The notes beneath the pieces were generated by a model. It was not told the origin of the DNA. It saw nothing but the letters and a program-made list of their open reading frames with translations, and searched no databases. The translations under genes and the position numbers were made by a program. From the NCBI RefSeq assembly GCF_055900595.2, contig NZ_CM148325.1: 64,000 bases of DNA; one strand, written 5' to 3'. Every line of letters starts with the position of its first letter. Positions within the stretch are counted from its first letter, which is position 1. Below are positions 31,228-31,531 of the stretch, in pieces.

Positions 31228-31531
31228 TTTTTTGCTCGCCCATATTCAACGGCTTCTTTAAGGAGTTCATTTTCCATCGTTTTTTTGCCGAGCAGACGCT
31301 GGAGTTCTTTAATCTGCTTCATGGCGGCAGCAAGTTCAGAGGCAGGAACGACCTGTTCTCCGGCAGCCACAGCAGTAAGACTTCCCTCCTGGTATTGCTT
31401 ACGCCAGAGAAATAGCTGGCTGGCTGCCACACCATGTTGCCGGGCAACAAGGGAGACCGTCATTCCCGTTCAAAGCTCTGCTGAACGATAGCGATCTTTT
31501 CCTGTGTAGTACGCCGTCTGCGTTTCTCCGG
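31185..31531 (-). pseudogene. insC: IS2 orfA (InsC) with an apparent internal frameshift
   Basis: First 29 codons ([27 protein letters not shown]) run into a stop; the remaining 92 codons ([15 protein letters not shown]...) are in another frame. Confidence 0.6.

Follow-up and report, generated by a model that had tools for sequence, protein, structure and literature searches.

In IS2, the OrfAB transposase arises by −1 frameshifting at an A6G site (PMC3219604). The DNA-binding domain has been described as a three-helix bundle at residues 13-58 (Lewis et al. 2011, PMC3219604), with helix 1 at residues 13-26 and the HTH at residues 30-58 of OrfA; a leucine-zipper-like oligomerisation motif lies at residues 73-100 (PMC3219604). 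The substitution R13H abolishes both binding and transposition (PMC3219604), and binding is already lost when only 12 residues are removed from the N terminus of OrfA (Lei and Hu, cited in PMC3219604). An orfAB-null construct still transposes at a low background, which has been credited to chromosomal IS2 copies (PMC3219604).

We analysed a stretch of 64,000 nucleotides (the window) carrying an IS2 copy that shares with IS2A of K-12 MG1655 (IS3 family, IS2 group; insC1/insD1) the ends, the orfA/orfB layout, the A6G slippery site and the 5-bp target duplication. It differs from IS2A in measuring 1330 instead of 1331 bp, a C being missing in codon 28 of orfA. Naturally decayed IS2 copies show the same outcome, with the 5′ part of orfA disrupted and a 92-aa ORF and orfB left open, whereas the exact lesion (C lost from a CC doublet) was not found in any other of the sequences searched. 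The IS2 lies in an IS100 element that has the istA/istB layout and 5-bp target duplication of annotated IS100 copies, to which it is about 99.6-99.9% identical. Compared to intact IS100, this copy has its istA divided into ORFs of 93 and 247 aa and its left 24 bp cut off by IS2.

An IS2 copy with a disrupted orfA

The features of the IS2 copy are as follows.

30311..31640, minus strand: IS2 element, 1330 bp (1331 bp in intact copies), delimited by alignments to L001 and K-12 IS2A
31641..31645, no strand: target-site duplication GTGAT on the IRL side; a single GTGAT is present in the empty-site sequences L004, L005 and L020-L025
30306..30310, no strand: target-site duplication GTGAT on the IRR side, read from the sequence
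31460..31549, minus strand: 5′ fragment of orfA, 29 codons (sequence, ORF list, K-12 alignment)
31468..31468, minus strand: deletion site, the lone remaining C of what is a CC doublet in intact IS2 (the alignments place the gap at IS2 position 173/174)
31185..31463, minus strand: remainder of orfA, a separate 92-aa ORF from the former Met30 (ORF list, Pfam)
31227..31233, minus strand: A6G (AAAAAAG) programmed −1 frameshift site, intact (K-12 alignment; role per PMC3219604)
30322..31227, minus strand: orfB (InsD, 301 aa, DDE/rve catalytic domain), intact ORF (ORF list)

The element is IS2 in every structural respect but its broken orfA. The features that place a sequence in IS2 (IS3 family) are all present: terminal inverted repeats, orfA and orfB with the A6G site, the rve domain and a 5-bp target duplication. 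What it lacks is the intact 121-aa H+HTH/LZ OrfA, needed for autonomy but not for family membership. The element is bounded by TAGACTGGCC... and ...GGGGCAAATCCA; in minus-strand orientation (31640..30311), it starts TAGACTGGCCCCCTGAATCTCC... and finishes ...GGAAATATAGGGGCAAATCCA. Both ends are intact and align as identical to those of active copies, and over its whole length the element is collinear with K-12 IS2A and with three further annotated copies. Its exact InsD protein was found on only two other contigs, in unrelated contexts and in both cases with an intact 121-aa InsC; on these contigs it bears PF13276, PF00665 and PF13683.

On the minus strand, orfA opens at the ATG 31549..31547 and runs for 29 codons to a premature TGA (31462..31460) located in TTTGAACGGGAATGA (31474..31460, minus strand). 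The start had first been placed at 31531; the actual ATG lies 18 nt further upstream. Where intact IS2 reads GAACCGGG, the window copy reads GAACGGG: one C of the CC doublet is lost, 79 nt into orfA, and the frame is broken after codon 27. The shifted frame then appends two residues (R, E) after ...SFE, so that the first-pass annotation was right about the break after 27 residues and the stop, and short by these two residues out of 29. A second ATG (31463..31461, minus strand), the former Met30, shares bases with the premature stop as ATGA. From it the rest of OrfA continues in another frame, as first noticed, as a 92-aa ORF (31463..31185) beginning MTVSL and finishing PGDGE.

We aligned the copy to three comparison IS2 copies (L001-L003), 99.3-99.9% identical and annotated as intact IS3-family transposases with programmed frameshift. 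A single gap was obtained, with GAACCGGGAATG in those copies facing GAACGGGAATG in the window. Against L001 (E. coli LH50-c chromosome) this gap is the sole difference over the full element, the remaining 1330 positions being identical; against L002 there is the gap plus one substitution. In megablast searches of PLSDB and of 5,426 complete E. coli genomes, the best records align to the 1330-bp query over intervals of 1331 bp. The annotated IS2A of K-12 MG1655 (1331 bp), more distant at 96.0% identity with 52 substitutions, again gives a single gap at the same place. It has CC, so the reference does not share the window's sequence, and the suspicion that one C of the doublet is missing was borne out both here and with the three closer copies. 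The reading CCG GGA ATG, given in the first-pass annotation as that of the reference, is in fact the synonymous variant of this IS2 subtype, K-12 having CCG GGG ATG; InsC of K-12 and InsC of L001 are the same protein, both reading ...SFEPGMTVSL... Thus a 1-bp deletion relative to intact IS2 breaks orfA. The break is a deterministic feature of the sequence, for which chance is not an issue.

Expected effect on mobility, and decayed IS2 copies elsewhere

As read from this frame, the full-length 121-aa OrfA regulator and the OrfAB transposase cannot be produced, because the orfA frame is broken; the earlier statement that the copy makes neither InsC nor the InsCD fusion follows directly from that break. 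In Pfam, residues 8-87 of InsC correspond to HTH_Tnp_1 (profile positions 2-74), and the 92-aa remainder covers profile positions 25-74 only, positions 2-24 being lost. From the normal ATG only a 29-residue peptide is made. If ribosomes restarted at the overlapping ATG (former Met30), their product would be devoid of residues 1-29 and thus of helix 1. Since these residues include helix 1 of the DNA-binding domain, such a product should fail to bind IS2 ends. OrfAB from other IS2 copies should still be able to act on the element itself, both of whose ends are identical to those of active copies. The copy should thus be non-autonomous yet mobilisable in trans. Mobilisation in trans is plausible by analogy with the orfAB-null construct, whose background is credited to chromosomal IS2 copies. 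The intact ends and the published N-terminal lesions that abolish DNA binding (PMC3219604) agree with the earlier description of this copy as immobile unless complemented in trans.

Similar remnants are on record elsewhere. The 92-aa InsC remnant occurs in 1270 index blocks, compared to 80,750 for intact 121-aa InsC. Ten remnant-bearing contigs were inspected, and a real 5′ orfA lesion, of several kinds, was present in nine of them, the tenth being an assembly gap; we therefore rejected the idea that the 92-aa call is a start-codon artefact on intact copies. The lesions comprise a TAG at codon 24 (Q24*; L009, L010 and L015), a TGA at codon 29 (G29*; L011), a +1 in an AAA run (L014) and 5′ truncations that removed the promoter (L006, L012 and L013). 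In L008 (CP026777.1, position about 3990) an independent 1-bp deletion affects the GGGG run of GAACCGGGGATG, at most 3 nt from the window lesion, and orfA may have a minor slippage hotspot in its CCGGG(G) stretch. The window IS2 belongs to this recurrent class of decayed copies. This is ordinary IS decay of an already known kind, with nothing unexpected in it, and the copy matters little past its correct annotation.

A three-level nest of IS1, IS100 and IS2

The IS2 lies within IS100, 24 bp from the left end of that element, and the IS100 in turn interrupts insB of an IS1.

29922..30286, minus strand: right-hand part of IS1 (3′ part of insB and IRR), including the TTTAG copy 30282..30286 (ORF list, sequence)
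30287..30310, plus strand: left terminal 24 bp of IS100, severed by IS2 (left end uninterrupted in L004, L005 and L017-L025)
31646..33574, plus strand: main part of IS100 (IS21 family), summing with 30287..30310 to 1953 bp (1954 bp in intact copies; relatives' copies)
31708..31989, plus strand: N-terminal fragment of istA, 93 aa, HTH (ORF list, Pfam)
31956..31957, plus strand: istA 1-bp deletion site, the G of CGCGAG missing between these bases (giving CGCAG; alignment to intact copies)
31986..32729, plus strand: C-terminal fragment of istA, 247 aa with the rve domain, opening at an ATG that forms ATGA with the stop codon of the 93-aa fragment (ORF list, Pfam)
32726..33508, plus strand: istB, 260 aa, intact ORF (ORF list); IS100kyp helper ATPase IstB in relatives' annotation
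33575..33982, minus strand: second TTTAG copy (33575..33579) and left-hand part of IS1 (IRL, insA, 5′ part of insB; ORF list, sequence)

The first-pass annotation had an IS21 element nested in IS2. The order is the inverse: IS2 sits inside IS100 and IS100 inside IS1, as indicated by the target duplications (GTGAT and TTTAG) and by empty sites. IS100 is flanked by the 5-bp duplication TTTAG at 30282..30286 and 33575..33579 and has the istA, istB, length of about 1954 bp and 5-bp target duplication expected of IS100 (IS21 family); the uninterrupted istA and contiguous left end required for autonomy are both absent. The two parts of IS1 (29922..30286 and 33580..33982) sum to its 768 bp, with inverted repeats at 29922.. 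and 33960..33982 and with insA and insB. IS2 is the innermost and youngest element. The state without IS2 is present in the E. coli TUM1886 chromosome, in many ColV-type plasmids and in six short-read assemblies; in TUM1886 and the ColV-type plasmids this IS100 is 1954 bp long and its istA is annotated as intact.

That the IS21-family istA is split (31708..31989 and 31986..32729) had been noted correctly; the cause is a 1-bp deletion, and the element is IS100. The deletion is a genuine circulating allele, since it was present at the DNA level in all ten contigs read, which are independent short-read assemblies. In such assemblies, 33 index blocks contain the identical 247-aa product. Six of the ten contigs (L020-L025) have the split-istA IS100 in the IS1 site of the window but no IS2, so that the istA deletion is older than the IS2 insertion. 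The order of events is shown: IS100 entered IS1 (duplication TTTAG) and acquired the istA deletion, after which IS2 entered IS100 24 bp from its left end (duplication GTGAT) and lost its C in orfA. The nest gives a clean relative chronology for this virulence island. It should be annotated as an IS1 containing an IS100 containing an IS2, with the IS2 copy as frameshifted and non-autonomous (pseudogene).

The split IS100 also occurs at other sites. Full 1953-bp copies are located elsewhere in L017 (ends 473 and 2425) and L019 (ends 108 and 2060), with their own duplications GAACA and AAGTG, respectively, and copies with yet other flanks are found in L016 and L018. As several sites carry it with fresh 5-bp target duplications, this transposase-defective IS100 has evidently kept moving. 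It presumably spread, most simply, via proteins acting in trans from other copies, and so offers a modest natural example of how copies can keep moving with help in trans although their transposase genes are dead.

The window IS100 is a mosaic: it has the istA deletion of the short-read copies together with synonymous T32108 and C32157, common only to the intact TUM1886 copy, which points to recombination or gene conversion among copies of IS100. All its variants recur in at least one other copy and are uninformative for private divergence.

The two deletions resemble each other in two ways. Both create an ATGA overlap with an in-frame original Met (31460..31463, minus strand, and 31986..31989, plus strand), and the local sequence GGAATGAC is common to both deletion sites. 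By a rough, post hoc estimate this would arise by chance with a probability of about 1%.

Origin of the missing C and the surrounding island

We consider it probable that a recently inserted IS2 lost one C and became non-autonomous. With IS2 set aside, the window at 28334..61066 is collinear with TUM1886 at 99.4-99.7% identity, and over about 31 kb the only indels between them are the istA deletion and an 18-bp repeat unit common to the window and ColV plasmid L005. A flank of this length without an unexplained indel relative to so close a sequence makes a real, and then very recent, mutation the likelier origin of the missing C. The alternative is that the base was lost through an error of sequencing, assembly or polishing and that the IS2 copy is in reality intact and autonomous, which we regard as possible though rather unlikely. 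Read mapping and polishing are weakest in multi-copy repeats, and errors tend to persist in multi-copy IS. IS2 is such an element: E. coli genomes have a median of 4 matching places each. Apart from the missing C, the window copy agrees with an intact copy at 100% of positions, as would be expected of a consensus error, and the deletion allele is private to the window among all sequences searched. It was found at none of 6,711 IS2 places in the 5,426 complete E. coli genomes (best matches 81/82, with one gap), PLSDB gave no full-length perfect match to it, and the exact 26-mer, allowing either subtype, was absent from species-representative genomes, JGI metagenomes and IMG/VR. Nor was a sibling with the same IS2-in-IS100 junction found in PLSDB or the complete E. 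coli genomes, the best relatives having an empty site, and exact-protein look-ups returned no record of the 136-aa IS1 remnant that reads through the junction, the 44-aa orfA fragment with a GTG start or the 44-aa IRL-junction ORF. Against an error stand, besides the clean flank, the 2-base run (CC) at the site, which is not a long homopolymer, the frequency of natural lesions in the same region of orfA, and the other nearby 1-bp indel, that of istA, which is real in ten independent short-read assemblies. A generally indel-noisy window, as from a long-read-only or old assembly, was rejected on the strength of the same 31 kb. The IS2/IS100 junction and the missing C together form a copy-specific marker that could serve strain typing.

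If the deletion is real, ribosomes might re-initiate at Met30 and the truncated OrfA and OrfAB might inhibit other IS2 copies trans-dominantly or keep partial activity. The overlap of stop and start as ATGA after a 29-codon upstream ORF, the retention of the LZ-like motif (residues 73-100) and of the A6G site, and the analogous split IS100, also with an ATGA overlap and at several insertion sites, are in line with this. However, reading of the sequence reveals no Shine-Dalgarno at a useful distance from the ATG 31463, the 5′ orfA lesions elsewhere are heterogeneous and include promoter-removing truncations, as neutral decay predicts, and trans-complementation is a simpler account of the spread of the split IS100; we therefore judge re-initiation of this kind very improbable. 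The ATGA overlaps could allow translational coupling into the downstream pieces. It is likewise hard to credit that both deletions would make translationally coupled two-piece genes, yielding an IS2 inhibitor in trans and, in the split IS100 present at three or more insertion sites, a transposase that is tolerated or functional in two pieces, and a functional meaning of the two overlaps together with the spread of IS100 is, in the same way, most unlikely. Our preferred reading remains the recent loss of one C from orfA, which made the copy non-autonomous.

The region is an IS-dense mosaic island with PTS and transketolase genes and IS21- and IS66-type elements; several of its other IS are fragments or are frameshifted in relatives' annotation. 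It also bears two SPATE-type autotransporters, a YadA-like adhesin and a block common to ColV plasmids.

21616..25731: large autotransporter, 1371 aa, matching Tsh/Hbp-annotated plasmid genes
28064..28981: YadA-like adhesin ORF
57137..61012: large autotransporter, 1291 aa, S6 family peptidase in relatives' annotation

About 29922..46100 of the TUM1886-like chromosomal stretch (28334..61066) is also found on ColV-type virulence plasmids. As the block is present both in the TUM1886 chromosome and on these plasmids, this metabolic and IS block circulates between chromosomes and plasmids. An ISL3-family transposase gene contains, at about 34890..34940, an 18-bp unit repeated in tandem (TATCCCGTATTACAGGCT, two copies). 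The duplication is present in the window and in L005 and absent from TUM1886, and relatives annotate the ISL3 gene as frameshifted. At 15351..15730, next to an IS boundary at 15831, a cluster of four 1-bp indels separates the window from E. coli 23CRST013 (L031), to which the stretch is otherwise 99.6% identical; no long ORF covers this part, which appears to be non-coding.
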